From Candidatus Latescibacterota bacterium (GTDB lineage: Bacteria; Latescibacterota; UBA2968; UBA8231), in contig CBDCXV010000011.1 of NCBI GenBank assembly GCA_965223905.1, positions 448,001-512,000 of the forward strand: a stretch of 64,000 nt of DNA, given 5' to 3'. The position numbers were made by a program, and so were the translations under genes. Of the stretch, positions 8,785 through 34,175 are shown one piece after another. The notes beneath the pieces were generated by a model, which had not been told where the DNA came from, ran no database searches, and saw only the letters and a program-made list of their open reading frames with translations. Positions within the stretch are counted from its first letter, which is position 1; every line of letters begins with the position of its first letter.

Positions 8785-10293
8785 TTACCCGGATTTGCGC
8801 GCGCTGGCTTTGAGTTCCTTGAGCCGCTGCGCGGCTTCCGAGCTCCTGTAGAAATCGTCGAGAGGGAAGCAGCCGCTGACCATGCCGTTGCGCGGGGCGG
8901 TGGTGCAGTCGCTGAAGGTGCGGCAGATCAGCTTGCGGGCCAGCTGGCCCCCGCCGTGGAGCAGATCGTGCGGCAGGTCGGGGTACGACAGCACCATGCG
9001 GCCCAGACCGACGAAATCGACGGCCCCCGAACGCACCGCGGCCTGGGCGACGTGGGGCAGGAACTCCTGCAGGTAGCTGTAACCCGATCCCACGAACACA
9101 CGGTCCGGGAACGACCTCTTCAGCCGGGCGGCGGCGGCGATCTGCCTGGCCACCCCGGCGAGCGGGTCCTCGGGCGGCTGGTACCCGTCGGAGGGCGGGA
9201 ACAGCGCCGGACGCTGAATGTGGGGGTTGTAGTAGGGGCTGCCGCAGGTGAGGTTGACGAGGTTCACCCCCCACTCGCCGAGGGCGGCAATGAAGCGGCG
9301 GGGCTCGTCGAGATCGATTTCCAGCGGGTCGCGGGGGTCGAGGCCGAACCCGTACTGGTAGGGCAGAAGGGTGTCGAAGGGTTCGGGGACCCCGGTACCG
9401 GGCTTGCCTCCGACTTCGCCGGGACCGGCTCGAAACGGCACGAAGTCATAGACACTAAGGCGCACTCCTACTTGAAGTTGAGGTGCCTCACTATTGATGC
9501 CCTCGACGATTTCCCGGCAAAAGCGGGTGCGGTTGTCGAATGAGCCGCCGAACCTGCCGGGGCGCGTGCGCGCGCTCAGCAGCTCGTGACCGAGATAGCC
9601 GTGGCAGTGCTTGACGTCGACGAAGTGGAACCCTGCGTCGCGGGCGATGCAGGCCGCTTCGACGTAGAGCTCGATCAGCCGTTGCAGGTAGTCGTCGGTG
9701 ACGGGTGCATGGCCGGGGTCGAGTCCGAACCTGCGGTCGAGGATGGGGTGCCGGTAGGCGATGCAGGGCTCCATCCGGTCCTTGCGGAAGGGCCGGCAGA
9801 AGCGTCCCGAATGGGTCAGCTGAAGGCCGACCACGAGGTCGTCGGCAGAGCCGAAGCGCTCCCGGTGCGCCGCGGTGAGGATCTCCCACAGCTCCCGAAC
9901 TCCGTCGCGGGTCGTGGCGCAAGCCATCAGCTGGTTGGGATTGGCCCTCCCCTCGGGGCACACGGCAAACGCCTCGCCTCCCCAGATCAGCTTGGCGCCG
10001 CTGCGCCCGAAGTTGCGCCAGCGGCGGCGCACGAAATCGGTGGGCATGCCGTCCCCGGTGCCGTCCCAGCCCTCCATCGGCTGGATGGCGAAGCGGTTTC
10101 CCGCACGCCTTTCGCCAATTTCGCAGGGCTGTGCCAGCGGCGATTCGGGTGCCGGCAGCGGTGCCTCGTCACAGGGAAGCGAGGCCCCGATGGCCTCGAG
10201 GTGGGCGCGGAAATCGGCGACCTGCCGGAAGGCGGACACCCGCGGATGCCGGTCCCGGCGCCGCGGGGCCTCTCCCGAATCGGTCTCAGCCAT
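8785..10293 (-). CDS. NADH:flavin oxidoreductase (old yellow enzyme family)
   Basis: IQPMEGWD, QLTHSGR, DVKHCHGYL, GGSFDNRTRF, CRTFSDC. Confidence 0.85.
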   Translation of the reverse strand: MAETDSGEAPRRRDRHPRVSAFRQVADFRAHLEAIGASLPCDEAPLPAPESPLAQPCEIGERRAGNRFAIQPMEGWDGTGDGMPTDFVRRRWRNFGRSGAKLIWGGEAFAVCPEGRANPNQLMACATTRDGVRELWEILTAAHRERFGSADDLVVGLQLTHSGRFCRPFRKDRMEPCIAYRHPILDRRFGLDPGHAPVTDDYLQRLIELYVEAACIARDAGFHFVDVKHCHGYLGHELLSARTRPGRFGGSFDNRTRFCREIVEGINSEAPQLQVGVRLSVYDFVPFRAGPGEVGGKPGTGVPEPFDTLLPYQYGFGLDPRDPLEIDLDEPRRFIAALGEWGVNLVNLTCGSPYYNPHIQRPALFPPSDGYQPPEDPLAGVARQIAAAARLKRSFPDRVFVGSGYSYLQEFLPHVAQAAVRSGAVDFVGLGRMVLSYPDLPHDLLHGGGQLARKLICRTFSDCTTAPRNGMVSGCFPLDDFYRSSEAAQRLKELKASARKSG

Positions 10294-11068
10294 CGGGGCT
10301 TCGGCGGTCGCGCGCTTCCGGGCCGGACCTCAGCAGGTGTACGGTCCCCGCGATTCCTGCAATCATCAGCGTCAGGCTGATAAGCTGCGCCCCGGTCAGG
10401 CCCCAGGCCACGACCGGATTCAGGCGAATGAACTCCACTGCGAAACGGGCGCCGCCGCTGAGCATCATGTAGAGGAAAAACGTGGTGCCGGGCACCCGCA
10501 GGCGCATCCGCGTCGACCAGAGGACGGCGAAGATCGCCAATCCCATCAGGGTCTCGTAGACCGGGGCCGGATGGACTTTCTCGTAGGTGGGGACGACGCC
10601 GTCCGGGTAGGCCATCCCCCAGGGCAGATCGGTAGGCACGCCGTAGTCGCCGTCGCCGGCCAGCTGGCAGCCGATTCTGCCGATGGCGTAGCCGATCGCC
10701 AGGCCGATGCCGACGGCGTCGGCCACCTCCGGCAAAGGCGCACCGCGGCGGCGCACCACCCAGATGACCGCGGCCGTCGCCAGGAAGAAGCCGCCGTGCC
10801 AGGTTAGGCCGCTGCCGGAGAACACGGCGCCGAAGGACTCGCTCCAGGTGGCGCCCGGTGGAAGCTCGAAGAGGATGAAGTAGAGCTTGGCTCCGGCGAG
10901 GCCGGCGAGGATGCCGGCGGTGAGGATGGAGGAGGCGAGCTCGGGGTCTATTCCCTTGCGGCGCAATTCCTTCTGGATGAAGAAGTGGCCGGTTAGGAAA
11001 CCGAGAACGACCATGGGACCGAAGGTGGGCAGCTTGAAGCCGCCGATTTCCAGCCAGTAGGGGTACAT
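10286..11068 (-). CDS. lgt: Prolipoprotein diacylglyceryl transferase
   Basis: Multi-TM; GLTWHGG, GRIGCQLAGDGDYG, HPAPVYE, RFAVEFIR. Confidence 0.88.
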   Translation of the reverse strand: MYPYWLEIGGFKLPTFGPMVVLGFLTGHFFIQKELRRKGIDPELASSILTAGILAGLAGAKLYFILFELPPGATWSESFGAVFSGSGLTWHGGFFLATAAVIWVVRRRGAPLPEVADAVGIGLAIGYAIGRIGCQLAGDGDYGVPTDLPWGMAYPDGVVPTYEKVHPAPVYETLMGLAIFAVLWSTRMRLRVPGTTFFLYMMLSGGARFAVEFIRLNPVVAWGLTGAQLISLTLMIAGIAGTVHLLRSGPEARDRRSPDG

Positions 11069-14000
11069 CAGCCCGTCGCCCCGGCGGCGCTGTTGCCGCC
11101 TTCCTCCGCTTTCCCGGCGAGGCGCGCGATCTCCCGCCGCACCTGCGCGGTGACCTCCCTGTAGACCTCGTAGTTCCCCAGGCGCTGGCGGCGGGCGGCG
11201 TACGGGGCCATCTCCACGGGGGGTCCGAAGTTCAGCCGCACCGGGTTGCGGCGGGGAAAACGGCCGTGTTTCGGCAGCGCTTCCCGGGTACCGAGGACGT
11301 GCACCGGCACGATCGGCAGGTCGAGCTCCACCGCCAGCAGACCCACCCCGGTCCTGAACGGCTGCAGCCGGCCGCTCGGGGACCGCGTTCCCTCCGGAAA
11401 GACCAGCAGCGGCCTGCGCACCCCGATCAGGCGGCGCAGGGCCAGCAGGCTTTCGAGGAACTCCTCCTGCCGGTCGAAGGGGACGGCGTCGAGCATGGTG
11501 TGCAGGAACCAGCTCAGCAGCGGCGACCTGGAGAAGTAGTCCCTTGCCGCGGCGAGGCTGAGGCGGTCGACGTGAGGCCTGACCGCCAGCAGTATGGAGG
11601 GGGCGTCGAGATGGCTCGAGTGATTGGCTGCGATCACGTAGGGACGGTCGGCTGGAAGGTGCTCCAGTCCCCTGGCCTTCAGCGAAAAATAGAGGCGGAA
11701 CAATCCCCCACCGGCGCTCCAGAATGCTTCCCGCAGGGCGCCGGAACCGCCTTCGGCCGGGCGCCGGTGTTCCCTGTTCCCGTCTTCTCCCCGCAGCGCC
11801 CGGGTCCAGTACCCGCCCTCGTTCACGGAGGAAACGACCTCCTTTCCCGCGTCCGCAAACAGAGGCTCCAGTTTATCCATCAGGCTTCTCAGCGTGGGGC
11901 TGCGGTGGATCTCCCGGGGAAGCGAACGGCCGAGCGTCTCCTCGACGACCGCGGCGAACTCGACCGACATCAACGAATCGAGCAGGCTGTTGAGGGGGGC
12001 GTCGCCGTGGGCGAGCACCTCTGCCGCCGTCAGTCCCGTTATCCTGCTCAGCAGGTCGTAGACCGACCTCTCCCACGGCGCCAGGCTTTCGTCGACCTCG
12101 ACCTCGGCGCCATGCAGCTGATGCTGCAGCTCCTCCAGCACCCGGGTCCGGTCGACTTCACCGGCGTGGTTGCGCGGCAGCGGCCGGCTGCGCACGTGCA
12201 GGCGTTGAATCCGCTGGTAGGTCGGCAGGTGGCGGGAAATCCCGTACGCCGCCTCCTTCACCCTCGCGGCCGCGGCTTCCCCGGCCCCCTCCTCCAGGAC
12301 CGCCACTCCGTGAGCTTCCTCGCTCAGGGTGCGCGGCGACCTCACCCCGACTACGCTCAGCTCCGCCACCTCGGGCAGGCCGCGGTACAGCCCCTCCACT
12401 TCACCGGGGTAGACGTTTTTGCCCGCGCCGGTGACGATCAGGTCCTTGCAGCGGCCGGTGATGAACAGGTACCCGTCGTCGTCGAGGTAGCCGATGTCGC
12501 CGCTGTGCAACCAGCCGTCCATGAGGACCTCGGCGGTCAGTTCGGGACTGTCGAGATACCCGGGCATGACGTTGGGCCCGCGCACGAGGATCTCGCCACA
12601 GCCGCGGGGATCCGGCTCGTCGATGCGCAACTCGACCCCGGGCAGCGGGATTCCGACCGATCCCTTCCTGGTCTTCCCCGGCGGGTTGACGGTGACGATG
12701 GGGGACGTCTCTGTAAGGCCGTACCCCTCGTACACGGTAACCCCCATGCGCCGGTAGCTCTCGAAGATTCCCGAAGCCAGGGGCGCGCCCCCGCTGACGA
12801 CGAGCTTGAGCCTGGAAATCAGGGCGGCGCTGTCGCGATTCAGGGCGTTGCGCTCCTCCTCGCCGTGCCTGCCGAGACGTTCGATGCGATCGGCGAGGAT
12901 TTTCAGCAGCCGGGGCACCGCGAGCAGCGCCGTCGTGCCGGTCTCCCGCATCGTTTCGAGGATGACCCGGCTGTTGAGGGTCTCGAGGTAGGTGATCGTC
13001 GCCCCGCTGAGCAGCGACATCAGCAGCGAGCCGGTGAACTCCAGGCCGTGGTGGAGGGGGAGCAGGGAGAGGACGCGGTCCCCCCTGTCGAGGCGCTGCA
13101 CCTCGGCCAGGGCGAGCAGATCGGAGAGGAAATTGCGGTGCGTCAGCACCACTCCCCTCGGTTCGATCGCGGTGCCGGCCGTGAAGATGATCGACGCCTC
13201 CATCTCCGGGGTGACCTCGGGCGGTTTCCGGTCCCCCTGCGGGGCAGGCTGCGCCTCCTCTGATGCCCCATCCGGCGGCGGGGACGGCCTGCCTTCGTTT
13301 TCGAGGTCGAAGACAGGCAGCGGCCAGCCGGCCAACCCCGACCCCGCTTCGGGGTTCAAAGTCTCGAAGCAGGGGCGCGAGGCGATCAGGCCCCGGGCCC
13401 TGGTGAACGCCGCCAGCTTCCACACCTCCTCCCCGCGGGTCTGCGGGTCGACGGGAACCACCGACAGACCGCCGACCGACGCCGCCATGTAGGCGATCAC
13501 CCACTCGGGACTGTTTGCCGCGTACAGCAGCACGCGGTCGCCCGACTCGAGCCCGCAGCGCTGCCACAAGTCCGCCTGGGCCTCTGCCCGGGCCAACAAC
13601 CCCCCGAAGGCGACCTTCCTCCAGGAATTCCCGCGCTTCATCTGCAGGGCCGTGACCTCCCCGTAGCGGGCGCACGACCAGCGCAGCAGGTCGGGAATCG
13701 TCTGCAGCTCTTCCTCCTGCTGCCAGCGCTCCTCTTCCGAGCCGACCTCGGCCGGCGCCTCGCGGAAGATCTCCTCTTCCCCGGCGTCCCTCAGGACGTG
13801 CCGCCTGAGTCCGGGCAGATGGACGTCGCAGATGTAGCGCTCCCAATCGATGCGCTCGACGTCCATGTTGAAATCCTGCCGCTCCCCTTCCGGCAGACGC
13901 GCGTAGAGCGAGCGGGCGCGGTCGGTGGCAAAGCTGCAGGTCAGGTGGGTGTACGGATGGTAGATGTCGGCGTAGTACAGCACCCTCTGGAGACGGATCT

Positions 14001-15384
14001 TCATCGTCGACAGGAGCCGGCGTTTCTGCGGGGAAGCCCAGCGCCATCCCGAAGGCAGGCGCTTGAGCCACCAGGAATGAAGCGCCAGCGGCAGCGAGTA
14101 CTTGAGCCGGAATTTCAGCCGGAAGCGGCGCACGCCGGGGTAGGTCCAGCTCGCCAGGTGCGGAGCGCGGCCGTCGCGGCCGAGAAGCGGGTTGGCGCTG
14201 AAGTAGGTCACCAGGCTGTCGTAGAGCTGGGAAATCCGCACCGGGTTCCGGCTCGCCGTGGCCGCGTGGTAGACCTGCACCTCCCCGGGGGAGGCCTGGG
14301 TCGCCGCGGCCAGGGTGGTGTTGACGACGACGTCGACCGGGACGATGTCGAGGGCGAGATCGGGCCGCGCCGGAAAATCGGGCAACAATCCCTTGCCGTA
14401 CGCCGCCACCAGGGGATCCATCACCTTCAGCCCGGTGATCCACCCCGGCTCGGGATCCTCGAGGGAGCTTTCGATGATGCTCGGCCGCACGATGACGAGC
14501 GCCTGGCCGTCGCGGTTCCCGACCAGCAGCTGCTCCCCCATCGCCTTGGTGAAGGTGTAGACGTCGTTCCAGCCGTGCTCCCTGGCGCGCCGCATGCCCT
14601 CGTCGACGAGGCGGCGCTCGATCCAGTGCCTGCTTCGGTCCTCGGTGAGCTTCTCGAGCCGGCTCTTCGACAGCGGCCGGGTGCGGTGCTGCCGCAGGAT
14701 GGCGCGCTCGAACCCGCGGCGGAGCGCCTCTCCCCGGCCCTCCTCGTACACCCCCCGGCAGAACTCCTCGCAGTCGGCGATCTCGCGCTCGGGATCGAAC
14801 GGCGCCGACCCGGCACCCGGATTCGCCATCTGGCTGATGTCCCGGTCCAGGGGCAGGGGCTCCTCCGGTATGACCCCGGTAAGGCGGCCGTTGACGTAGG
14901 CGGTGGAGACGTGGACGAAGTCGACCGGCTTGCGGCAGCCTGCGGCGAATTGCAGGAGGGCGAGCGGGCCGTGGGTGTTGAGGCGGATCGAGTCGTCGAG
15001 GGGCTCGTCGAAGACCACGGTCGCGGCGCTGTTGAAGATGGTGTCGATCTCCTGGCGCAGGCGGTCGAGCATCGCCGGTTCGACCCCGAAGTCCGGCTTG
15101 TCCGTGTCCCACGGGACGGCAACGACCTTGGCTGCCTGGGGCGCGAATCCTTCGGGATCTCCGTCGCGGTGGCGGCGGAAGACCGCGTCCTCCGCCAGCA
15201 TCCGCTGCACCCGCTCTTCCGCGGAAAGGGTCTCGCCGTTGCGGCCGCGGCCCGGGCGGGCGAAGGCGTAAATCCGCTCCACCTGCGGCAGGTCGCGAAG
15301 GATTTTCGCGATCAAAGCCTGGCCCAGGAAACCGGTGCCGCCGGTGATCAACAGACTGCGGCCGGCGAAATACTCGCGGATCAT
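11068..15384 (-). CDS. Multidomain lipid enzyme: fatty acyl reductase + AMP-binding domain + ACP + PlsC-type acyltransferase (ElbD-like)
   Basis: TGGTGFLG and YTFTK (FAR); EGYGLTE, SGDIG, GRCKDLI (AMP-binding); LDSL (phosphopantetheine Ser); NHSSHLD and FPEGTRS (acyltransferase). Start is ATG 15384 or GTG 15414. Confidence 0.9.
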   Translation of the reverse strand: MIREYFAGRSLLITGGTGFLGQALIAKILRDLPQVERIYAFARPGRGRNGETLSAEERVQRMLAEDAVFRRHRDGDPEGFAPQAAKVVAVPWDTDKPDFGVEPAMLDRLRQEIDTIFNSAATVVFDEPLDDSIRLNTHGPLALLQFAAGCRKPVDFVHVSTAYVNGRLTGVIPEEPLPLDRDISQMANPGAGSAPFDPEREIADCEEFCRGVYEEGRGEALRRGFERAILRQHRTRPLSKSRLEKLTEDRSRHWIERRLVDEGMRRAREHGWNDVYTFTKAMGEQLLVGNRDGQALVIVRPSIIESSLEDPEPGWITGLKVMDPLVAAYGKGLLPDFPARPDLALDIVPVDVVVNTTLAAATQASPGEVQVYHAATASRNPVRISQLYDSLVTYFSANPLLGRDGRAPHLASWTYPGVRRFRLKFRLKYSLPLALHSWWLKRLPSGWRWASPQKRRLLSTMKIRLQRVLYYADIYHPYTHLTCSFATDRARSLYARLPEGERQDFNMDVERIDWERYICDVHLPGLRRHVLRDAGEEEIFREAPAEVGSEEERWQQEEELQTIPDLLRWSCARYGEVTALQMKRGNSWRKVAFGGLLARAEAQADLWQRCGLESGDRVLLYAANSPEWVIAYMAASVGGLSVVPVDPQTRGEEVWKLAAFTRARGLIASRPCFETLNPEAGSGLAGWPLPVFDLENEGRPSPPPDGASEEAQPAPQGDRKPPEVTPEMEASIIFTAGTAIEPRGVVLTHRNFLSDLLALAEVQRLDRGDRVLSLLPLHHGLEFTGSLLMSLLSGATITYLETLNSRVILETMRETGTTALLAVPRLLKILADRIERLGRHGEEERNALNRDSAALISRLKLVVSGGAPLASGIFESYRRMGVTVYEGYGLTETSPIVTVNPPGKTRKGSVGIPLPGVELRIDEPDPRGCGEILVRGPNVMPGYLDSPELTAEVLMDGWLHSGDIGYLDDDGYLFITGRCKDLIVTGAGKNVYPGEVEGLYRGLPEVAELSVVGVRSPRTLSEEAHGVAVLEEGAGEAAAARVKEAAYGISRHLPTYQRIQRLHVRSRPLPRNHAGEVDRTRVLEELQHQLHGAEVEVDESLAPWERSVYDLLSRITGLTAAEVLAHGDAPLNSLLDSLMSVEFAAVVEETLGRSLPREIHRSPTLRSLMDKLEPLFADAGKEVVSSVNEGGYWTRALRGEDGNREHRRPAEGGSGALREAFWSAGGGLFRLYFSLKARGLEHLPADRPYVIAANHSSHLDAPSILLAVRPHVDRLSLAAARDYFSRSPLLSWFLHTMLDAVPFDRQEEFLESLLALRRLIGVRRPLLVFPEGTRSPSGRLQPFRTGVGLLAVELDLPIVPVHVLGTREALPKHGRFPRRNPVRLNFGPPVEMAPYAARRQRLGNYEVYREVTAQVRREIARLAGKAEEGGNSAAGATG

Positions 15385-15503
15385 CTCGAGACCTGTCCCG
15401 TCATCTCGCGGCACTGCCGGCGCTCGCCCACCCCACTCGGGGGCCTTGCGAGACAGGTGCCTCGGCGGCGCAATCCTGGCAATCCATTTCCGGGACGGAA
15501 CAC

Positions 15504-15764
15504 TTATTGTTCATCCGGGTCGGAGGGGTCGTCTTGTTCATCCGGGTCGGAGGGGTCGTCGGCGCGGAGGCCTTGAGTCGAGAGGTCCGATCCGTTGCCT
15601 TCCTGTTCTGTCCGTTGGCGGTCGGAGCCCTGCGGGGGCTCGAGCCCCTGCCCGGTTATGTACGGGTGCCGGAAATGCTTTCTCAGCGCCTCCAGGAGCG
15701 GCTTGTCCAGCCGGTCCGGGGCGCCGTCGCCGCTGCCGGTTCCGTCTTCGGGACGCCTCGCCAT
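15504..15764 (-). CDS. Small acidic hypothetical protein (about 86 aa)
   Basis: GAAGGA RBS before the ATG; ends in (DDPSDPDEQ)x2; same orientation as the ElbD-like gene. Confidence 0.4.
   Translation of the reverse strand: MARRPEDGTGSGDGAPDRLDKPLLEALRKHFRHPYITGQGLEPPQGSDRQRTEQEGNGSDLSTQGLRADDPSDPDEQDDPSDPDEQ
15507..15560. repeat. Perfect 27-bp tandem duplication
   Basis: TTGTTCATCCGGGTCGGAGGGGTCGTC at 15507-15533 and 15534-15560. Confidence 0.95.
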
Positions 15765-15863
15765 TGCCATTCCTTCAGGTAAACTCACTGAAGATACGGC
15801 GCCCCGTGGTGTCAGCAATTTGAACGGCGGCAGCACCGCCGCGGCAGGGGAGCCCGCACAGGA

Positions 15864-16787
15864 ATGGAAAAGAATCAGACCGCCACGGGACGCTGGGCCA
15901 TCATCGCCAATCCGGCCGCGGCCCGGGGCCGCGCCCCGCTCCTTGCGGCCGCGGCTTCGCGCTACCTTGGCGAACGCGGGATCGCCGCGGACCTGTTGGT
16001 TTCGGAGGGCCGCGGCCACGCCTGCGAGCTCGCCCGCAAAGCGATCGCCGAAGGAGCCGGCCGCATCGTGACGTGCGGAGGGGACGGCACCGTCAACGAG
16101 ATCCTGCCCGCGGTCGCCGGCTCGCGGGCCGCTCTCGGACTGCTGCCTTGCGGAACCGCCAACGACTTCGCGCGCGCCCTCGGGATACCGCGGCAACCGC
16201 GTCGGGCGCTGCGCAACCTGGTCGAGGGACGCGAGGTCCGCGTCGACCTCGGGGCCTGCGGCGACCGCTACTTCTGCACCGTCGCCGCCTGCGGGTTCGA
16301 CGCCGAGGTCAGCGAGGCGATGCGCGAGGGCCGCCGCCTGCCGGGAACGGCAGGGTACCTCTGGGCGGCGCTCCGCCACTTGTTCCGCTTCGAGCCGGCG
16401 AAGGTGGCGGCGACGGGGGATTTCGGCCGCCTGGAGACCGAGGTGCTGCTGGTCGCCGCGGCGGTAACGCGAAGCTACGGCGGCGGCATGCGGATCGCTC
16501 CGCACGCCGATCCCGCGGACGGGAGGTTCGACGTCGTCATCATCGGCCCGGTCGCCAGAAGAACGGTGGTGGCGATGCTCCCCCGCCTGTTCCGGGGCAG
16601 CCACGTCGGGCATCCCGCGGTGCGCATCGAGCGTTCCTCGTTCCTCGAGATCGAGACACCGGGCGGCGCCCGGCCGCTGTACGCCGACGGCGAGCCCCTG
16701 GGAGAGACGCCGGTTTCCCTGCGCATCGCCCCGGGGTCGCTTCGCGTCATTGTTCCGCGGCCCCCGGCCCTCGGGATGCCGCCGTGA
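15864..16787 (+). CDS. Diacylglycerol/lipid kinase family (DagK/YegS-like)
   Basis: NPAA, GGDGTVNE, PCGTANDFARALG, YGGG, ADGE. Confidence 0.9.
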   Translation: MEKNQTATGRWAIIANPAAARGRAPLLAAAASRYLGERGIAADLLVSEGRGHACELARKAIAEGAGRIVTCGGDGTVNEILPAVAGSRAALGLLPCGTANDFARALGIPRQPRRALRNLVEGREVRVDLGACGDRYFCTVAACGFDAEVSEAMREGRRLPGTAGYLWAALRHLFRFEPAKVAATGDFGRLETEVLLVAAAVTRSYGGGMRIAPHADPADGRFDVVIIGPVARRTVVAMLPRLFRGSHVGHPAVRIERSSFLEIETPGGARPLYADGEPLGETPVSLRIAPGSLRVIVPRPPALGMPP

Positions 16788-16897
16788 CCGCAGCGCGCCG
16801 CCGGACATTGGCGATCCAAAAAGGGAGGCGGCGAGTCTCTCCTTGCCCGCATCCGCTATTTTCGCCAAATTACAAGACCCCCCACAGCAGCGCTCTG

Positions 16898-16910
16898 CCC
16901 CCCCCCCCCC
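16898..16910. repeat. C13 homopolymer upstream of the MCE operon
   Basis: 13 consecutive C, ending 38 nt before the ATG at 16948. Confidence 0.85.
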
Positions 16911-16947
16911 ACTCGTCCCATTCCCCCCTTTTGAGCCGTGACGCCCC

Positions 16948-17919
16948 ATGGCATCCCGGGCCCAGAAAATCCGTCTGGCCGTCTTCCTGCTTTCCGCCGC
17001 CGGCGTGCTTCTGCTGTTCCTGTTCTACGTGGCCGGTCGCAGCGTCCTCACACCGCGGCAGACCTACTTCATCGATTTCCCCGATTCGATCGGGGGACTT
17101 CGGCGCGGGGACAAGGTCAAGTACCTCGGGATCGAAGCCGGACGCGTCGAGAACACCTCGATCTCCCCTGACGATCACTCGGTGATCGTCGTCGAGATCT
17201 CCATCGAGGGGGACAAGGTCCCCAACGTCATCCGCGAAGACACCCGGGCGCGGCTGAAAAGCGTCGGCCTCACCGGGTTGAAGCACATCGAGCTCGTCTC
17301 CGGATCGCCGGACTCGCCGGTGCTCCCTCCCGATTCCCGCATAGCCTCGAGTCCGACCTTCCTGTCGGAAATGGGCGACCGCGCCGAGGAGCTGACCGAC
17401 AAGTTTGGAGTTCTGCTCGATAACGTGACCGAGATGACCGACCGGGAAAACAGCGCCCGGCTCAACCGCATGCTCGCCACGGGCAGCGAGTTCACCGCCA
17501 GCGCCAACGAGTTGATGAACGACAACCGCCGGCAGATCGACGAAAGCTTCCGCAACCTCGCGGCCATGACCAGGTCGCTCGCCGGGGCCGCGGCCTCCCT
17601 GCACACAACCATGGACTCGGTGAACGCCCTGGTCACCGACGGCGAACTGCGCGGCACCCTCACCGACCTGCGCCGAACCAGCCGTTCCCTGCAGCTTCAG
17701 ATGGAGGGGCCGGTTCCGCAGCTGCTGGCCAACCTCTCGCGCATGGCCGGCAACATCGACACCACCTTCATGCGACTGGACCGCACCGTGATGCAGGGCC
17801 GCAGGAACTTCCTCGACGCGATCCAGGACCTCCAGGAAACCATGCTCAACGTCCGCCAGGCGACGGAGCTGATCCGGGAGAACCCCTCGATCCTGATTCG
17901 CGGCCGCGCCGATCGCTAG
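16948..17919 (+). CDS. mlaD: MCE/MlaD family protein with long helical C-terminus
   Basis: N-terminal TM; GLRRGDKVKYLGIEAGRV; GLTGLKHIEL; ENPSILIRG end. Confidence 0.88.
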   Translation: MASRAQKIRLAVFLLSAAGVLLLFLFYVAGRSVLTPRQTYFIDFPDSIGGLRRGDKVKYLGIEAGRVENTSISPDDHSVIVVEISIEGDKVPNVIREDTRARLKSVGLTGLKHIELVSGSPDSPVLPPDSRIASSPTFLSEMGDRAEELTDKFGVLLDNVTEMTDRENSARLNRMLATGSEFTASANELMNDNRRQIDESFRNLAAMTRSLAGAAASLHTTMDSVNALVTDGELRGTLTDLRRTSRSLQLQMEGPVPQLLANLSRMAGNIDTTFMRLDRTVMQGRRNFLDAIQDLQETMLNVRQATELIRENPSILIRGRADR

Positions 17920-17929
17920 CTCCGTGCCG

Positions 17930-18721
17930 ATGCCTGTGTCCATCCCCAGTTGCTCCCGGTACCTGCGGTCGGCGGCGATCGCCCTTGCCGCCGCCTTCAT
18001 CTCCTGCACGAGCCTGATCGGCGGCAAGGCCGAGATCCGCGAAAAGCGCAAGTTCATCATAGAGTCGGCGCCGTTGTCGCTGAACCTGCCGAACTCGGAG
18101 CGCCCCTACGCCCTGCACGTCGAGGTCGGCAAGTTCGACATCTCCAGGCTGTACGACCGCAACCAGATCATCCTCAGGCAGTCCGCCGAGGAGGTCCGCG
18201 AGAAGGCCCACCACTCCTGGGCGGTGCGGCCCAGCGAGATGATCACCGACGCCGTCGAGGGCTACCTGAAAGAGGCCCGCCTGTTCACCGATATCCGCCA
18301 GGACTTCGTCGACGTCATCCCCGACTACCGGATCACCGGCACCGTCAAGTCGCTGGAACGCCTCGACAGCGGCGACCAGTGGTACGCCAACTTCAGGCTG
18401 TCGGTGCAGCTGGTCGACGGCAGGAACGAGGTCGTCAAGAGATGGGACTTCGACGACGAAGCGGAGCGCGTGTACCACCGGGATTTCGTGCACACGGTGA
18501 CGGCATTCAACGAACTGCTAAGGCGCTACATGTACCGGGTGATCCGCGACATGGACCACATGTTCCTCATCCGCAAGCTGCAGCGGGAGAACCGTCCGTA
18601 CCAGCACATCCTCGACGTGCCGAACGGCCGCGCCTCCGCCCCCGCCGACACCGCGGTCAGCGACAGCACCCGGGACGCCCCGCATCCCGACTACGATATC
18701 ATCCCCGGAAAGGGCCTGTAG
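17930..18721 (+). CDS. ABC-transport auxiliary lipoprotein (PqiC-like)
   Basis: Lipobox-like FISC; YDRNQII...WAVRPSEM pattern; directly follows mlaD. Confidence 0.75.
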   Translation: MPVSIPSCSRYLRSAAIALAAAFISCTSLIGGKAEIREKRKFIIESAPLSLNLPNSERPYALHVEVGKFDISRLYDRNQIILRQSAEEVREKAHHSWAVRPSEMITDAVEGYLKEARLFTDIRQDFVDVIPDYRITGTVKSLERLDSGDQWYANFRLSVQLVDGRNEVVKRWDFDDEAERVYHRDFVHTVTAFNELLRRYMYRVIRDMDHMFLIRKLQRENRPYQHILDVPNGRASAPADTAVSDSTRDAPHPDYDIIPGKGL

Positions 18722-18722
18722 C

Positions 18723-20264
18723 ATGCGCTGTTGCCGCTCCGCTCCCACGGCCCTCTGCCTCGCGTTCCCCGCGGTCCTGTTCGTTGCATTCGCCGCGGCC
18801 GACGAGAGCACCTGGTCGGCGCCTCCGGGGCGCGTGCAGCTGGCCGAGGACCCGCAGCTGATCCCCAAGGGGAAGGGGATGCTGTTCGTGCCGATGATGA
18901 GCGTTCCCCACGGCAACGAGCCCAGCTACCAGATCTACAGGAAGGGCGGCGACCTCGTCGGTTCCGCCAGTCCCGGAAGCGGCGTACTGCTGCCCCCCGG
19001 AAGCTACCGGGTGCGCATCGGTTCCGGGGCGATCTCGCAGATGATCAAGAAGACGGTGGAAGTGGTGGAGGGGAGCAGCACCCTGCTCAAACCGGACTGG
19101 TCGGCCCTGGTGATCGACGTCATCGACCAGACCCGCACCCCGGTCAGCGAATCGTACGAGCTCTACCAGGAGGAGACCCAGGAGAACTTCGGCCAGGGGC
19201 TCGGCATCGAGGAAGAACGCGGGGAAAAGGTCCGCACCTGGCTCCTGAAGCCGGGCGTCTACCACGTCGTCAGGGTCGGCGAGTCGTTCTCGACCATCCG
19301 CAAGTTCAGCGTCCGGCTGGAACCTGGAAAGCTGGTGCAGCGCGACCTCGTCTACGACGCTTCCTCGGGGAACTTCATCGGTTTCTACGCACGCCCCATG
19401 CTTCCATACGGGACCGCCCGAATCGCCAGGAACGTCACCTCGCAGACCGAGCTCAGCGGATCGACACTGTTCCACACCTCCCAGAACACCGCCGGCGAGG
19501 ACATGTCGAGCACCTCGCTGTCGCTGCAGGTCTTCAACCGGACCCGCTACAGCACCGAGCAGCACTTCGCCAACCTGCGGCTGATCTTCGAGGAGGGGGC
19601 CACCCAGGAGGGAGACAAGGGCTTCCACAAGTCGATCGACAAGCTCGAGCTGCGGGGCACCTACATCTACCGCGTGTCGACCGCGTTCGGCCCCTACCTG
19701 CGCGGGGTGCTCAACACCAAGCTGTTCTCCGACGACATCACGTTCGACCGTCCGTTCGCAGGGGATTTCATCAAATACGGCGCCCTGGAGGACACCCTCA
19801 ACATCATCCCCAACCCGGCGGAGGTGATCCTGTCCCCCGCGTTCTTCCCCCTGCGCCTGCGCCAAGGGGTCGGGATCAACTCCCAGCTGGTGCGCTCGTT
19901 CGCCCTCAACGCCGACGTCCGCCTCGGTTTCGGAGCCCGGCAGACCTACGTCTCCCACTCGTTCGAGCTCGCCTCGAACCAGCGCTCCGCCACCGAGCTG
20001 GAGAACGCCTTCAGCAGAGGCTTCGAGGCGGTGTTCATCACCGACGCGCGCCTGGCCAAATCGATCAACTTCGACTCGGAATTCGACATCCTGATCCCTG
20101 GGGGGAACCGGGACGACTGGGTGTTCAGCTGGCAGAATCGCCTGCGCATCTTCCTCACGAGCTTCATCAACCTCGACCTGGTGGGGGATCTCGAGCGCGA
20201 AGAGACGCTGAAGCGGCTGCAGGGACGGGAGCAGATCCTGTTGCGGTTCTCCCGTTTCTTCTGA
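18723..20264 (+). CDS. Exported hypothetical protein, probable outer-membrane beta-barrel C-terminus
   Basis: Signal peptide; alternating amphipathic strands; C-terminal ...ILLRFSRFF. Confidence 0.6.
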   Translation: MRCCRSAPTALCLAFPAVLFVAFAAADESTWSAPPGRVQLAEDPQLIPKGKGMLFVPMMSVPHGNEPSYQIYRKGGDLVGSASPGSGVLLPPGSYRVRIGSGAISQMIKKTVEVVEGSSTLLKPDWSALVIDVIDQTRTPVSESYELYQEETQENFGQGLGIEEERGEKVRTWLLKPGVYHVVRVGESFSTIRKFSVRLEPGKLVQRDLVYDASSGNFIGFYARPMLPYGTARIARNVTSQTELSGSTLFHTSQNTAGEDMSSTSLSLQVFNRTRYSTEQHFANLRLIFEEGATQEGDKGFHKSIDKLELRGTYIYRVSTAFGPYLRGVLNTKLFSDDITFDRPFAGDFIKYGALEDTLNIIPNPAEVILSPAFFPLRLRQGVGINSQLVRSFALNADVRLGFGARQTYVSHSFELASNQRSATELENAFSRGFEAVFITDARLAKSINFDSEFDILIPGGNRDDWVFSWQNRLRIFLTSFINLDLVGDLEREETLKRLQGREQILLRFSRFF

Positions 20265-20277
20265 CCGCCCCCGACCG

Positions 20278-21369
20278 ATGAGCGAGGTCGCTGACATCGA
20301 CGCGGGCATTCGCCTCACCGGCCCCCTCACCCTGGAGACGCTGCCCGGACTGGGAAGCCGCTGCCGGCGTCTGATCGACAGCCATCCGCACACCCGTTTG
20401 TCGGCCGACGTCACCGCGGTAAGCGCCATCGACACCGCCGGGGTCGTTTTCCTGCGCGGCCTGCCTAAAGCGGCCGGGGCTTCGGGCAAGGAGCTGGTGG
20501 TCGGCCCCCTTCCGGAGAACCTTCAGCCGTTCTACGACTTCGTACGGCCCCCGCAGGCCGCGGCCAGCGAAGCGCCTGCGCGTCCTGCGCTCGGCCAGCG
20601 CCTCGGCGACGCCGCGGAGGATCTCGTCGACCGCGCCGCGGATTTCCTCTACCTCGCCTCCGACCTCACCTGGGTCGCAGCGGCGGCGATCTTCCGGAGA
20701 TTCGGCATCCGCCGCGGCTCCTTCGTCGATCAGGCGGTCGCCATCGGCTCCCGGGGCCTGCCGATCGTCGCGCTCATACTGTTCCTCGTCGGCGGGGTAT
20801 CGACCCTGCAGGCCGCGGCCCAGCTGCGCCAGTTCGGCGCCAACATCTTCGTCGCCGACCTGCTCGCCATCGGCGTCAGCCGCGAGCTCGGGCCGCTGAT
20901 GACGGCGATCATCGTCGCCGGCCGCAGCGGCTCGGCGATCGCCGCGGAAATTGCGACGATGAAGTTCACCGAGGAGATCGACGCCCTGCGCACCATGGCT
21001 CTCGATCCCCTGCGCATGGTAGCCGTCCCCAAGATGTGGGCGATGCTGCTGACGGTTCCCCTGCTTACGGTGATGGCGGTTTTCTGCGGCCTCCTCGGAG
21101 GGACCCTCACCGGGGTTCTCTCCCTCGACATCGCCCCCACCACCTTCGTCGCCCGGATCACCGACGCCCTCCAGCTCAAGGACATCCTCACCGGCCTGGT
21201 CAAGAGCGTCTCCTTCGCCTGGATCATCACCGTGATCGGCGTCCACCGCGGCCTCAACTCCACGGGCGGAACGACCGGGGTCGGGGTCTCCACCACCTCG
21301 TCGGTGGTCAGCTCGATCTTCGGCATCATCGTCCTCGACCTCTCCTGGGGTCTCTTCTTCTACCTGTGA
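20278..21369 (+). CDS. mlaE: MlaE-family permease with N-terminal STAS domain
   Basis: IDTAG (STAS); RELGPLMTAIIVAGRSGSAIAAEIATMK..EEIDAL. Confidence 0.92.
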   Translation: MSEVADIDAGIRLTGPLTLETLPGLGSRCRRLIDSHPHTRLSADVTAVSAIDTAGVVFLRGLPKAAGASGKELVVGPLPENLQPFYDFVRPPQAAASEAPARPALGQRLGDAAEDLVDRAADFLYLASDLTWVAAAAIFRRFGIRRGSFVDQAVAIGSRGLPIVALILFLVGGVSTLQAAAQLRQFGANIFVADLLAIGVSRELGPLMTAIIVAGRSGSAIAAEIATMKFTEEIDALRTMALDPLRMVAVPKMWAMLLTVPLLTVMAVFCGLLGGTLTGVLSLDIAPTTFVARITDALQLKDILTGLVKSVSFAWIITVIGVHRGLNSTGGTTGVGVSTTSSVVSSIFGIIVLDLSWGLFFYL

Positions 21370-21377
21370 CAACGTCG

Positions 21378-22127
21378 ATGGCAGCGGATGCGCAGGCGGT
21401 CCCGGCGATCGACATAGAGCGCCTGCGCGTGGCCTACGGGGACCACCTCGTGCTGCGCGACGTCAGCCTGCGCGTCGGGCAGGGAGGGATCGTCGTCGTC
21501 GTCGGGGGCAGCGGCTGCGGCAAGAGCACCCTGCTCAAGGCGGCCATCGGCCTCGTGGAGCCGAGCTCGGGGGCGGTGCGCCTGCTGGGTTCGGAGCTGC
21601 GCTCGCTGGAAGAATCCCGGCAGAGAGAGCTGAAGAAGCGGATCGGGGTGATGTTCCAGTACGGAGCCCTGCTGAACTCGCTGACGATCGGCGAGAACGT
21701 CGCCCTGCCGCTGGAGATGCACACCGACCTCGAAGCCGACCTGGTGCGCGAAGTGGTTTCCACGCGACTGCAGCTGGTCGGCATCGGGCAGGCGATCGAC
21801 CGCCTTCCCACCGAGCTTTCCGGCGGCATGCGCAAGCGCGCCGCCCTTGCCCGCGCCATGGCCCTGGAGCCGGATATCCTTTTCTGCGACGAGCCGGGTG
21901 CCGGGCTCGATCCGGTGACCGCGGCCGAGGTCGACCGCCTGCTGCTCACCGTCAACCGCAGCCTCGGCGTAACCCTCGTCGTCGTCACCCACGAGCTGCT
22001 CAGCATCGAGAGACTCGGGGGGGACCTGCTGATGCTCGCCGGGGGAGAGGTCCTGTTCTCGGGCCGCTCCGAGGAAGCGCGCCTCTCCGGCAAACCGGAG
22101 CTGGCGGGCTTTTTCAACCCGCAGTGA
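21378..22127 (+). CDS. mlaF: MlaF-family ABC ATPase
   Basis: GGSGCGKS, LSGGMRKR, CDEPGAGLDP, VTH. Confidence 0.92.
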   Translation: MAADAQAVPAIDIERLRVAYGDHLVLRDVSLRVGQGGIVVVVGGSGCGKSTLLKAAIGLVEPSSGAVRLLGSELRSLEESRQRELKKRIGVMFQYGALLNSLTIGENVALPLEMHTDLEADLVREVVSTRLQLVGIGQAIDRLPTELSGGMRKRAALARAMALEPDILFCDEPGAGLDPVTAAEVDRLLLTVNRSLGVTLVVVTHELLSIERLGGDLLMLAGGEVLFSGRSEEARLSGKPELAGFFNPQ

Positions 22128-30872: not shown

Positions 30873-32420
30873 CCCTAACGTTGCATAAATCAGCTTGAAG
30901 GAGGTGGTTGTGGTCAGGCCGCATCCTTCAGTGTATCGAGAAAATGCAACAGATCCTTTTCGATTTTTGGATTCGAGTTCATGGTCAGGGTCAACTCTCC
31001 CTTGGGCTGAGTGAGACGCCCGGCGCGATGCAGGAAGCGCTGACGCAAGGTGCCCAGGGTCTGGAAGGTCCACGCCGCCGGACGTTTGCCACGCGAATAG
31101 TTGGATCGCGCCTGCGCCAGCATCTGCATTTCGCGCCCCAGGTTGTGGGCCATCATCGCACCCAAAGTAACCATCTGGTTTCCGAGCAGCCGTCGGGTGG
31201 GGATCAGATCCAGCCCGGCATGTTGCTTGGCCTCGGCGAAGATCCCTTCCTGAGCGCCGCGGCCATAGTGGAAGAGGAGCACGCTACGTGCCGAGGCTCG
31301 GCTTGTTGGTAACCACAACGCGGTACTCGTGATCGAATGCTCGGGGTTCGAACAGATCCAGTTGCAGCGCTTCCTTGGTCGTGCGCCGTACCCTACGGCG
31401 CACGAAGAGAAACCGGTACGAGGCCGGCCAGCTTTTGGGTTTCCAGTCACTCTCGAAATAGGAGCATTGCTCATCGAGATAGCACCAGCGCTGGCGCGCC
31501 TCGATTTTGTCCTTGAGTAGCGCAAAGCGTTCGAAAGGGACACTGATCGTGCATTCGACGCCATACAGGTCCATGAGGGTAAGCGTGTGTTGGCTGAAGA
31601 AGGCGCTGTCCAGTCGGGACTCGAGCACGGGGTGCGCCAGTTCGTCGCCCACGCGATCGAAAACGTTCATCATGAATTCATGAGCGTCCTTGCTGTCATG
31701 GACGTTGCCGGGCCGGTGAAGGACATCGAAGAATTGACCGGTTTGGGCCACCGTGCAAAACAGGTTGTAGTAGCTGCGCGCCCCTTTTTTCTTGGGATTG
31801 TAGCCGACCGCGGTACCTTCAGCATGACCACAAGTGGAGGACACCGAGCCGTCGAAGTCGAGGGTCAGGCGAGGACAGCGTTCGCGCTGGAGCGCTTGCA
31901 CCACCAAGGTCGAAGACAGGTGGCGCACTTTTTCGACACTGGAATGGCCCATTTTCGCCAGCGTGCGACTGACGGTGGCCACATCCGGCAGGCGACGTAC
32001 GCCCAACAAGCGCAAGACCACGGGATCGTCCCGGTAATAATCGACGTCTCGCAGCCGCCGGAAGCCCAGCAGCAGATGCAAGATGAGCCACATTACAATG
32101 AGATGGGGACCAAAGATCGCTGAGCTATTGGCGGGGAAGCATGGCTTCAGTCGAGCCTTGAGATCCAGGCGCTGGAAGAGGAGTTGAAAAACAATCGTTC
32201 CTGCAAAGGAGGTAAGCTGTTGATCCTCGAAGCGAAGACGCGGGAGCTTGTGAAAACGGGCTAAAATGGCTTGTTTGCTACACTTCACTTGCGGTGTCCT
32301 CCTGGAAGGGGTCGATAAATGTCTTGGTCGACATCATCAATACCCCATTTTCAGAGGCGCCGCAAGTGAAGTGTGGCAGTTCAGAGATGAAAAATGTCCT
32401 GTTTTTATGCAACCAGAGGG
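30873..32420 (-). mobile_element. IS1380-family insertion sequence
   Basis: Terminal IRs CCCTAACGTTGCATAAA / reverse complement CCCTCTGGTTGCATAAA; no target duplication seen. Confidence 0.88.
30914..32288 (-). pseudogene. IS1380 transposase, frameshift near 31300
   Basis: TLDFDGSV, GYNPKKKGARSY, RPGNVH, RLDSAF, then YGRGAQEGIFAEAK in the next frame. Confidence 0.85.
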
Positions 32421-32616
32421 TAACGCCTTGCGTCAACAACCCATCGGCTTGGAACCCATTGACGACGGAGTCTGGGAGGTGTGGTTCGGTCCCCTTAGAC
32501 GGGGTCGCATGGACGAACGACAGCTCACCATCACCGACGCTTTGGGTAAAGCCGCTCGCCGGAAACTGTACACCATGTTGCCGGACTATTCTGTACAGGA
32601 TGTACCCGACCGCTCA
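32421..32616 (+). mobile_element. IS481-like element, 3' remnant
   Basis: Transposase tail PIGLEPIDDGVWEVWFGPL...DER followed by doubled TGTACA..ATGT..CCG end motifs. Confidence 0.65.
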
Positions 32617-33196
32617 ATCCTATTGCTGGTTCATTGGGCCGGCTAAGGCTCTGCTAACATCGGCAGATCACACCTGAAGCGGTGGCCTGGTTCCACGTGA
32701 CAGGAGGAACAGAGATCGAAACAAGCTGTGTTTCAGTTTTTGCCTGCACGTTCGTGTGGAAGCCCCGAGAGGAGATTTTGTGGTGGACATGGAACCTGCC
32801 ACCCCAGCCATTCCTCCAAGACTCCGCACAAGTGGCAGGTGTAAGGGATCCAATCCCTGGCTTTGGCTACTCTTTATTTATCGCTCAGTTGCTCCACGGT
32901 TCATCTGCCGGGGATCCTGAGGGACGGGTGTAACGGAGAAAAACGTGGCCTCTTCAAGGCTTTGTAACAGGAACTGCTCCAGATGGGACCTGAGTTCGGC
33001 CTGATGAAACCAATCCGGTATCTCTACCTCGTTCCACTTTCCAGCTTTTCAGCTTGTACGAAGAGGACTGAAAATTTGTGCCCTTGCACTCTAGCTCCAT
33101 GTGTATGCCGACCCTCTTGGACGGGGTCCAACCCCTTCCCTTACACCTTTGACATCCGGACTTGCAGAAAGCACCGAATGGACGAGGAGGTCCTCC

Positions 33197-33225
33197 TTGC
33201 CAAAATGGAATAGCGCCGCTATATT
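33197..33225 (+). promoter_or_regulatory. Candidate sigma70 promoter for rpsT
   Basis: TTGCCA-17 bp-TATATT. Confidence 0.6.
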
Positions 33226-33372
33226 CCGCCTCCTGTGCCTGTTCGAGATCAGCGATCCATTTGACTTCTTGTTGACTTCTTGACTTCGGTCCCGGACAGT
33301 TGGGATAGACTGATCGGATATTGATGCCGAACGGGAGAAGGGCGCTTCTCGAAAAAGAGAGGAAGGAACAGC

Positions 33373-33636
33373 GTGCCCAAGCTGAAATCTTCAAAAAAAC
33401 GACTCGCCAAGAGCTTTGCGCTGAGAACGAGAAATCGAAGCTACGTATCAGCAGTACGAACGGCCGTGAAGACTGTCTACACGGCAGGCGATGCCGAGAC
33501 GGCGCAACTGGCCCTCATATCAGCAGTGTCCATAATTGACAAGACTGCGAGAAAGGGGAAACTCCACTCGAAAAGGGCAGCGCGCACCAAGTCGAGGCTT
33601 ACGAGACGAGTAGCTAGTGTCCCGTCGCAGAGATAG
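33373..33636 (+). CDS. rpsT: 30S ribosomal protein S20 (C-terminus altered by MITE)
   Basis: MPKLKSSKKR...RNRS...IDKTARKGKLH.KRAARTKSRL; GTG start after GAGGAAGG. Confidence 0.93.
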   Translation: MPKLKSSKKRLAKSFALRTRNRSYVSAVRTAVKTVYTAGDAETAQLALISAVSIIDKTARKGKLHSKRAARTKSRLTRRVASVPSQR

Positions 33637-33779
33637 ATTGACAAAATTGGGACGCTCAGGCGCCGGCTCACAAGGCGCCTGAGCGAGTCGTACCGAGTGT
33701 GTACGGCGAGTGAAAGCAAACGCCGTGAGCCGGGATATCGGCGTCCCAATGTCGACATATTTCTGCGACGAGACACTAG
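33614..33779. mobile_element. Palindromic MITE with IS630-type ends, at a CTAG site
   Basis: CTAGTGTCCCGTCGCAGAGATA ... TATTTCTGCGACGAGACACTAG; both ends match the left end of the IS630 at 34652. Confidence 0.9.
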
Positions 33780-33820
33780 TATGGCCTGAGCAGGTGGCAA
33801 CCAGACGCGATCCTGGATCG

Positions 33821-33856
33821 ACCCCGCGCTTCCTCAGTGAGGCTGCGGGGTTTTTT
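33821..33856 (+). terminator. Rho-independent terminator of rpsT
   Basis: ACCCCGC...GCGGGGT stem followed by a T run. Confidence 0.8.
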
Positions 33857-33910
33857 GCGATCAGTAAGTAGAAAGCACGCAGTTGATCGCTGTTGTATGT
33901 AAAGGACAAG

Positions 33911-34175
33911 GTCGAGTAGCTCAGCCATTCGGCTTTGCCCTCACAGATCCGTACCTACGGCTTTACCGCATACGGCTCCTTTCGAAGGTAACGCGTTGCA
34001 CCAAAGTCACAACGGGCCGCAGTGGGTGATCCGGGGTGGCGGCAGAGAGAAGAACAGTAGCAGGTCCTGAAAGCGGTTCCATGTCAGCCCCCCGTCGACT
34101 TCGCTTGCGAAGACTGCGAAACAACAGTCGCTTGACCTCGTAGTAGAACGAGTTCAAAGCCTTCGCAACATTCTA
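33911..34175 (-). mobile_element. Group II intron 3' remnant (maturase C-terminus, domains V and VI)
   Basis: Minus strand GAGCCGTATGCGGTAAAGCCGTAGGTACGGATC (DV, AGC triad), then TGTGAGGGCAAAGCCGAATGGCTGAGCTACTCGAC (DVI, ends in AC); upstream FYYEVKRLLFRSLRKRS..TWNRF..LPPPRITH. Confidence 0.88.

Follow-up and report, generated by a model that had tools for sequence, protein, structure and literature searches.

Several described systems bear on the locus analysed here. One is ElbD of Myxococcus xanthus (Lorenzen et al. 2014), in which a fatty acyl reductase (FAR), an acyl-CoA synthetase (ACS), an acyl carrier protein (ACP) and an AGPAT-like acyltransferase follow one another, in this order, in one polypeptide encoded by the elbA-E operon, as described in PMC9131029. 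According to the main text of a 2026 preprint (10.64898/2026.06.23.733905), standalone elbD and agps co-occur in Latescibacterota metagenome-assembled genomes (MAGs) from sponges, and diacylglycerol kinases lie beside elbD in some clades. Lipoproteins anchored by ether lipids are documented only in archaea, with AliA/AliB and thioether-linked archaeol, in the account of PMC12462473, which also names two catalytic arginines as important in the prolipoprotein-modifying enzyme Lgt. The window that we compared with these systems is the whole stretch of 64,000 nucleotides between positions 448,001 and 512,000 of contig CBDCXV010000011.1 (assembly GCA_965223905.1), from a sponge-associated Candidatus Latescibacterota bacterium whose genome (G000) is a MAG of 7.9 Mb in 11 contigs, with ~68% G+C and 93.6% completeness. 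It contains an elbD homologue standing divergent from a YegS-type lipid kinase gene. With moderate confidence we regard these two genes as the probable core of an ether-lipid system set among housekeeping envelope genes.

Genes were identified from an open reading frame (ORF) listing together with Pfam and NCBIfam profile scans. The two genes of the core, with the domains of the first, are as follows.

11068-15414, minus strand: elbD homologue, 1,448 amino acids, with NAD_binding_4 plus Sterile, AMP-binding and Acyltransferase matches
elbD residues ~12-545: FAR domain (NAD_binding_4 and Sterile)
elbD residues ~578-1085: AMP-binding ligase domain (AMP-binding)
elbD residues ~1125-1200: carrier domain with Ser1147, placed by alignment to an orthologue
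elbD residues ~1246-1372: PlsC-type acyltransferase domain (Acyltransferase)
15864-16787, plus strand: YegS/BmrU-type lipid kinase (DAGK_cat 3.2e-30, YegS_C 4e-41)

The first-pass annotation had assigned the large gene the architecture of ElbD (FAR, ligase, carrier, acyltransferase), and the Pfam matches and motifs of FAR, ligase and acyltransferase agree with it, as does the placement of the carrier domain by alignment; the order is the one given in PMC9131029. The Pfam E-values are 2.6e-59 for NAD_binding_4, 1.8e-11 for Sterile, 3.6e-67 for AMP-binding and 1.8e-23 for Acyltransferase. The FAR domain has the Rossmann motif GGTGFLG and the YTFTK (Y-x3-K) motif, both kept in 5/5 aligned orthologues. 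EGYGLTE and GRxKD are present in the ligase domain, and the acyltransferase domain of the window protein keeps NHSSHLD (HX4D) and FPEGTRS. The carrier region of the window protein gave no Pfam PP-binding match at E <= 0.001; the aligned region of the orthologue from genome G031 matches at 1.5e-9, and Asp1146-Ser1147 is invariant in all five aligned sequences. Full-length ElbD homologues with 35-57% identity occur in Latescibacterota, Acidobacteriota, Gemmatimonadota, Planctomycetota, Verrucomicrobiota and Poribacteria. The window protein aligns over its full length, at 36-41% identity, with poribacterial and acidobacterial proteins of the type termed elbD homologues in the literature.

The kinase scores 149.8 against the TIGR00147 cut-off of 118.65, carries the GGDGT motif and is the sole strong DAGK_cat match of the genome. 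Its association with ElbD was quantified on a cross-phylum set of 80 ElbD/FAR loci obtained by an alignment-based scan; the loci come from at least six phyla and are labelled as Latescibacterota, Acidobacteriota, Gemmatimonadota, Planctomycetota, Verrucomicrobiota, Poribacteria and Armatimonadota, among others. Neighbours were counted by tblastn, with the window proteins and the accessory proteins of sister clusters as queries. Hereafter f1 denotes the Latescibacterota family of the window, and f2, f3, f4, f8 and f13 denote other families of the phylum. The matches near ElbD/FAR were distributed as follows.

YegS-type kinase: 44 of 80 loci
HAD-IB hydrolase: 39 of 80 loci
Zinc-dependent alcohol dehydrogenase (Zn-ADH): 26 of 80 loci
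LarA-like protein: 18 of 80 loci
Lgt: 13 of 80 loci
Old Yellow Enzyme (OYE)-like flavoprotein: 12 of 80 loci
MlaD, PqiC-like, 513-amino-acid protein and MlaE: 11 of 80 loci

Adjacent to ElbD/FAR in 11 of 15 loci of f1 type and in 33 of the remaining 65, the YegS-type kinase is a recurrent partner of ElbD across phyla, and the link between ElbD and the divergent kinase that had been noticed in the window holds well outside the f1 block.

The remaining genes of an ether-lipid route were found by way of sister families, where two cluster types occur. The first type consists of ElbD (or split ACS and FAR), HAD-IB, Zn-ADH, a LarA-like protein (NF052592) and the kinase. The second consists of FAR, a 650-amino-acid protein, an AGPS-like flavoenzyme, a short-chain dehydrogenase/reductase (SDR) and the kinase, which is common to both types; compact examples are L062:3420-10651 and L067:8929-16163. 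Based on tblastn, the genome of the window holds dispersed orthologues of the second set. Its AGPS is 64% identical to the clustered AGPS and aligns with mammalian AGPS (4bby) over nearly the full length at E 2.3e-147, and its SDR is 55% identical to the clustered SDR. A 654-amino-acid protein (L085:6973-8937) is 46-48% identical to the clustered 650-amino-acid proteins. THQSLLDH (HX4D) is invariant in this family, which also shows a YPAGTT stretch; no Pfam family matches above threshold, a sub-threshold Acyltransferase match appears in one of three members, and a PDB sequence search with the 654-amino-acid protein returned nothing meaningful (E 0.89). The family is a candidate for the bacterial dihydroxyacetone phosphate (DHAP) acyltransferase, the role of GNPAT, an assignment by motif and position since no Pfam match lies above threshold. 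The ether bond is probably made by the AGPS route outside the elbD locus. The earlier remark that none of the elb accessory genes can be recognised holds for the locus itself, where neither an elbB-like HAD nor an elbE-like neighbour occurs in the window, and does not extend to the genome, in which the AGPS-route genes lie elsewhere. A search of the genome with the HAD protein of G031 gave no match at E <= 1e-8, and Zn-ADH and LarA-like queries gave weak matches only (25-31% identity).

In the route that we propose, the FAR domain would produce the alcohol or aldehyde by reduction of an activated fatty acyl group, AGPS would exchange the acyl group of acyl-DHAP for the fatty alcohol, and the SDR would convert alkyl-DHAP to 1-alkyl-glycerol-3-phosphate. 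Acylation at sn-2 would be carried out by the acyltransferase domain of ElbD or by PlsC, and the kinase would phosphorylate alkyl(acyl)glycerol for entry into phospholipid synthesis. FAR domains of this Pfam family are also used in wax-ester synthesis. The enzyme of the window might supply fatty alcohols to wax esters, or to neutral lipids of another kind, and make no ether glycerolipids, a reading that would suit the statement in PMC9131029 that the FAR and acyltransferase activities of M. xanthus ElbD have never been shown in vitro. The genome, however, contains a bona fide AGPS, and orthologous FAR genes cluster with AGPS, SDR and kinase in sister families. On this gene content, with no search aimed at a wax synthase, we give the wax-ester reading a very small probability and retain the ether-lipid core.

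The other genes around the core are the following.

8785-10293, minus strand: OYE-like FMN oxidoreductase (the flavoprotein), 502 amino acids, Pfam Oxidored_FMN 77.8 bits, 1.2e-21
10286-11068, minus strand: lgt, 260 amino acids, Pfam LGT 157.4 bits
16948-17919, plus strand: MlaD (Pfam MlaD)
17924-18721, plus strand: PqiC-like lipoprotein (ABC_trans_aux)
18723-20264, plus strand: 513-amino-acid exported protein, with a sub-threshold DUF3078 match only
20278-21369, plus strand: STAS-MlaE fusion (STAS and MlaE)
~21369-22127, plus strand: MlaF-like ABC ATPase (top NCBIfam match MlaF)

Base 11068 is common to the elbD stop and the lgt start (TGATG), the end of lgt overlaps the ATG of the flavoprotein gene by 8 bases (ATGGCTGA), and an intergenic region of 449 bp separates the divergent elbD and kinase. 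ORF coordinates and Pfam matches thus reproduce the gene positions and both overlaps recorded by the first-pass annotation, and the MCE genes it had placed beside the lipid kinase (MlaD, PqiC-like, exported protein, MlaE, MlaF) are present on the plus strand. From this arrangement it had derived one module in which elbD, lgt, flavoprotein, kinase and MCE genes together make, phosphorylate, transfer and export ether lipids and yield ether-anchored lipoproteins. All of these genes act on membrane lipids, and the overlapping stop and start codons suit such a unit. The distribution of the genes does not. Every Lgt, flavoprotein and MCE match in the cross-phylum set sits in the 15 f1-type loci, 6 of which repeat the related-contig set, and none of the 65 ElbD loci outside the f1 block has any of these genes nearby. 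In families f2, f3, f4, f8 and f13, Lgt, flavoprotein or MCE genes lie within ~9 kb of FAR/ElbD in 0 of 10 loci. These absences are minimum statements because many contigs are short. The synteny that the annotation proposed to look for in relatives is kept within f1 and missing beyond it, and the elbD-lgt-flavoprotein-MCE order is restricted to one bacterial family. Within f1, moreover, six related contigs are collinear over the entire stretch from ilvD to the aminotransferase, and ilvD, dhfr and the aminotransferase are as syntenic as lgt, the flavoprotein and the MCE genes. With adjacency confined to f1 and with lgt and MCE as sole copies, we consider the single module very improbable.

The annotation had also asked whether this is the only lgt of the genome, and it is: one LGT-family match was found. 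By profile it reaches 157.4 with Pfam PF01790 (cut-off 24.9) and 100.4 with the NCBIfam equivalog TIGR00544, under the cut-off of 118.9. The rest of the lipoprotein pathway is present, with one LspA match on contig 9 and Lnt at window 50103-52319, and a closed genome of the same genus (G103) has one Lgt as well. The window sequence carries the motif GRIGCQLAGDGDYG and belongs to a divergent subtype with 155-175 Pfam bits, whereas a canonical subtype that occurs in other families and carries the G-N..N.E..G signature reaches 215-247 Pfam bits. The E. coli-type signature G-N-x-x-N-x-E-x-x-G is not matched by the window protein. Aligned to E. coli Lgt (PDB 5azb), it is of the same LGT fold family and keeps both Arg residues and the His of the HGG stretch, while it has Cys for the Asn of the G-N-F stretch and Phe for a Tyr near the N-terminus. 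All 11 Lgt-family sequences compared within the phylum (11/11) share R131 and R208; for the two catalytic arginines we presume the E. coli numbering. Cys in the place of this Asn was considered as a mark of a new function and rejected, as ordinary acidobacterial Lgts share this Cys, namely the top-scoring Lgt of four ElbD-bearing genomes (GRLGCFAAGCDYG). Since these Lgts carry Cys too, the E. coli-type signature is not family-defining outside Proteobacteria. At least three signature types exist in the phylum (G-N..NSE..G, GCFLNGCCYG and GCQLAGDGDYG), and two types can occur in one genome, as in G037, G042 and about a dozen f1 genomes.

Most f1 genomes, closed ones included, have no Lgt other than the divergent subtype. 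In genus g31 of family f4 the same Lgt is the sole copy, and lgt, FAR and flavoprotein lie megabases apart (e.g. in the closed G085); in G031, again as sole copy, it stands between a metal repressor and a Cu-ATPase. The idea that the subtype tracks the presence of ElbD was rejected on these grounds, the subtype being the sole Lgt both in G000 and G031, which have full ElbD, and in genus g31, which is FAR-only and unlinked. About a dozen f1 genomes hold an extra canonical Lgt elsewhere, to which we attach no interpretation because these MAGs are 5-13% contaminated. As it is the sole Lgt, also where it is unlinked to FAR, we judge the divergent protein to be the working housekeeping Lgt of these lineages and no specialised paralogue. 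It would perform ordinary prolipoprotein lipidation and might passively transfer ether species if the phosphatidylglycerol pool contains them. The proposed ether-anchored lipoproteins are unsupported, the gene order giving no evidence of a dedicated route, and among the papers listed by a literature search none was on such lipoproteins in bacteria. As a separate observation on this pathway, Lnt (LNT_N and CN_hydrolase) has 738 amino acids, with ~240 residues past the hydrolase domain that have no Pfam match, and its gene is preceded by those of PhoH, a 7TM-HD protein and a CorC-like protein.

Similar conclusions were reached for the other two neighbours. The flavoprotein is single-copy and conserved across the class, occurs in 136 of 168 phylum genomes at E <= 1e-20 and shows 58-70% identity across f1-f4; a canonical OYE is encoded elsewhere in the window's genome too. 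Outside f1 neither lgt nor FAR is near it in any of 12 loci, and its neighbours there are MreB/MreC, 2-hydroxyacid dehydrogenase, transposase and transketolase-like genes, among others, which argues against its membership in one module. A protein atlas search with the flavoprotein gave generic OYE or 2,4-dienoyl-CoA-reductase-like clusters only. We judge it to be a neighbour outside the ether-lipid module, probably with some unrelated reductive role. The MCE operon has MlaD, MlaE, MlaF and a STAS partner, the last (MlaB-like) fused at the N-terminus of MlaE. With a single MlaD match in the genome, this MCE/Mla system is its only one, and it is therefore no dedicated ether-lipid exporter. Both lgt and the MCE genes must serve general functions because they are the only copies of the genome, and we judge the MCE operon to be a housekeeping neighbour that would carry bulk lipid traffic between membranes. 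The 513-amino-acid protein, with a signal-peptide-like N-terminus, a C-terminal Phe and 51-64% identity within f1, is a candidate outer-membrane barrel or partner of the MCE system. On this account lgt, MCE and flavoprotein genes would have come to stand next to elbD through the fixed gene order of one family, with possible co-expression with envelope biogenesis.

Several points weigh against the reading of a two-gene core among housekeeping genes, and they concern both the enzyme and its neighbours. In the C-terminal G-K-V-D-R stretch of the ligase domain, the Lys of which would be the catalytic one of ANL enzymes, the orthologue of G031 has Lys, the window protein has Glu, and three f1 orthologues (L003, L004 and L007) have Arg; the ligase domain of the window may be impaired by this change. 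In L003 and L004, from genus g12, the largest sister genus, HX4D and FPEGTRS are degenerate at the residues aligned to 1255-1350 of the window protein although the frame is intact, which suggests that constraint on the acyltransferase domain is relaxed in part of f1. The protein is classed as ElbD by the described domain order of the M. xanthus enzyme and by its full-length homology to the poribacterial and acidobacterial proteins, there being no Myxococcus sequence among the 80 loci. That the kinase acts on alkyl(acyl)glycerol is an inference, as is the way in which labour would be divided with AGPS. As to the neighbours, the elbD/FAR-lgt-flavoprotein trio is tightly packed, with its 1-base and 8-base overlaps, and is retained in 13/13 f1-type loci with enough flank. 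In the four f1 genera sampled with a FAR-only gene, FAR is followed by lgt and the flavoprotein in 4/4 loci, and the kinase is not in the block in 3 of the 4. Two f1-type loci (L094 and L095) keep the trio with no kinase or MCE gene found upstream, which makes the trio the most stable part of the block in f1. Since it persists in FAR-only loci and in those without kinase and MCE genes, FAR, lgt and flavoprotein may be linked in some way within f1, by selection or by transcription.

One form of such a link would be that the divergent Lgt (GCQLAGDGDYG) is both co-transcribed and translationally coupled with ElbD/FAR and that lipidation draws on alkyl-acyl phosphatidylglycerol. Were this true, there would be lipoproteins in bacteria anchored through S-(alkyl-acyl-glyceryl)cysteine, and the retention of the trio where the rest of the block is lost would be explained; we think there is little likelihood of it. 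RNA evidence, in the form of Logan contigs from two RNA libraries of one study labelled sponge metagenome, could be brought forward for the larger module too. Pieces of all its genes (187-556 bases) fall on the flavoprotein, lgt, elbD, the intergenic region with the kinase start, mlaD, the 513-amino-acid gene and mlaE/F. No contig of these libraries spans the elbD/lgt or the lgt/flavoprotein junction, and because RNA-library contigs prove neither transcription nor co-transcription they are silent on co-transcription either way. A promoter scan gave 0 promoter-like sites; terminator-like sites numbered 12 against 6.3 +/- 2.7 in shuffles, lay mostly within genes and are uninformative.

The degenerate motifs raise the question of whether only the FAR domain matters. 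In that case ligase, carrier and acyltransferase would be decaying, and the protein would be a plain fatty acyl reductase feeding AGPS. FAR-only genes of ~545-590 amino acids, in a scan of 168 phylum genomes, indeed take the place of ElbD in several f1 genera and also occur in families f2-f4 and f8. To place the window among them, a tree of the FAR domain was built with IQ-TREE (LG+G4, 88 rows, branch support by the SH-like approximate likelihood-ratio test (SH-aLRT) only, midpoint root, so that the root is unestablished); 4 of 91 loci with short or interrupted matches were left out. The window protein groups with f1 at a support of 100. The sister group of this f1 clade consists of FAR-only genes from AGPS clusters, and the two form a Latescibacterota clade with joint support of 97. 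The rows of other phyla are full-length except one FAR-only gene of Planctomycetota (L159) and two truncated matches, and the FAR-only rows require at least 3-4 state changes. With nearly all rows of other phyla full-length, the tree is consistent with C-terminal ElbD domains having been lost or split off repeatedly within Latescibacterota, a point in favour of the FAR-only reading. In the window, however, the acyltransferase keeps HX4D and FPEGTRS and the carrier its Asp-Ser, and the C-terminal 2.7 kb form an intact frame with ~50% identity across many f1 genomes. Weighing these, we consider the FAR-only reading unlikely for the window protein and continue to favour the complete ElbD-type enzyme with its kinase.

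The FAR domain of ElbD is the only strong NAD_binding_4 match of the genome besides an A-PCP-R protein. The latter is a carboxylic-acid-reductase-like protein of 1,069 amino acids (AMP-binding, PP-binding, NAD_binding_4) on contig 2 of G000 (L087:4374-10707), and its gene lies two genes from that of a 476-amino-acid fatty acid hydroxylase-domain protein, with a BNR-repeat gene in between. Elsewhere in the cross-phylum set an arrangement recurs in which ElbD is followed by HAD-IB, Zn-ADH and a nickel-pincer isomerase homologue of LarA-like type (NF052592, 770 bits), the kinase standing before or after. It was seen in Gemmatimonadota, Acidobacteriota, Planctomycetota, Poribacteria and others, at L068:7807-16715 (G031), L104, L107, L109, L117, L139, L145, L155, L158, L160, L162 and further loci; a literature search found no paper joining elbD with lactate racemase. 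In the window itself, 31284-37606 has a G+C content of 0.54-0.62, against 0.68 around elbD, and several genes, or pieces of genes, for transposases or integrases (DDE_Tnp_1_4, DDE_3 twice, rve), and resembles an insertion-sequence cluster.

The correct assignment of bacterial ether-lipid producers bears on the 'lipid divide', on palaeoclimate proxies based on branched glycerol dialkyl glycerol tetraethers (brGDGT) and on bioactive lipids from sponges. The comparison separates the conserved partners of ElbD, which are the kinase and, in many phyla, HAD-IB, Zn-ADH and LarA-like proteins, from lineage-specific gene order, and it removes the attractive but unsupported idea of a dedicated ether-lipoprotein and export module. 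Latescibacterota appear to possess a complete AGPS-type route together with a FAR derived from ElbD, which offers gene sets for heterologous reconstitution. The pair of ElbD and kinase is of an already known kind; the f1 operon arrangement is lineage-specific and mildly curious and gives no evidence of a new pathway. The main text of the preprint 10.64898/2026.06.23.733905 makes no mention of lgt, diacylglyceryl, flavin, MCE or MlaD, so that the elbD-lgt-flavoprotein operon of f1 is not described there.

Set beside the known systems, the locus differs from each in some respect. With M. xanthus ElbD the window protein shares the four-domain order, its carrier domain being placed by alignment, and both genomes have AGPS; it differs in the Glu that substitutes for the C-terminal Lys of the ligase, and in place of elbB (HAD), elbC and elbE neighbours the locus is flanked by the kinase, lgt and the OYE-like flavoprotein. 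With Mla/Pqi-type MCE systems the operon shares MlaD, MlaE, MlaF and a PqiC-like lipoprotein, whereas the STAS-MlaE fusion and the extra 513-amino-acid exported protein are its own. AliA/AliB are a precedent for ether-anchored lipoproteins (PMC12462473); unlike the Lgt of the window, these enzymes are not of the Lgt family by sequence, use isoprenoid diethers and belong to another domain of life. The peroxisomal-type alkyl-DHAP pathway (FAR1, GNPAT, AGPS and acyl/alkyl-DHAP reductase) has counterparts in the sister-family clusters and, dispersed, in the genome of the window, where the FAR, in contrast to that pathway, forms one protein with ligase, carrier and acyltransferase domains. The description in the bioRxiv preprint of standalone elbD with agps, and of a kinase beside elbD in some clades, agrees with what is observed in the window and its genome.

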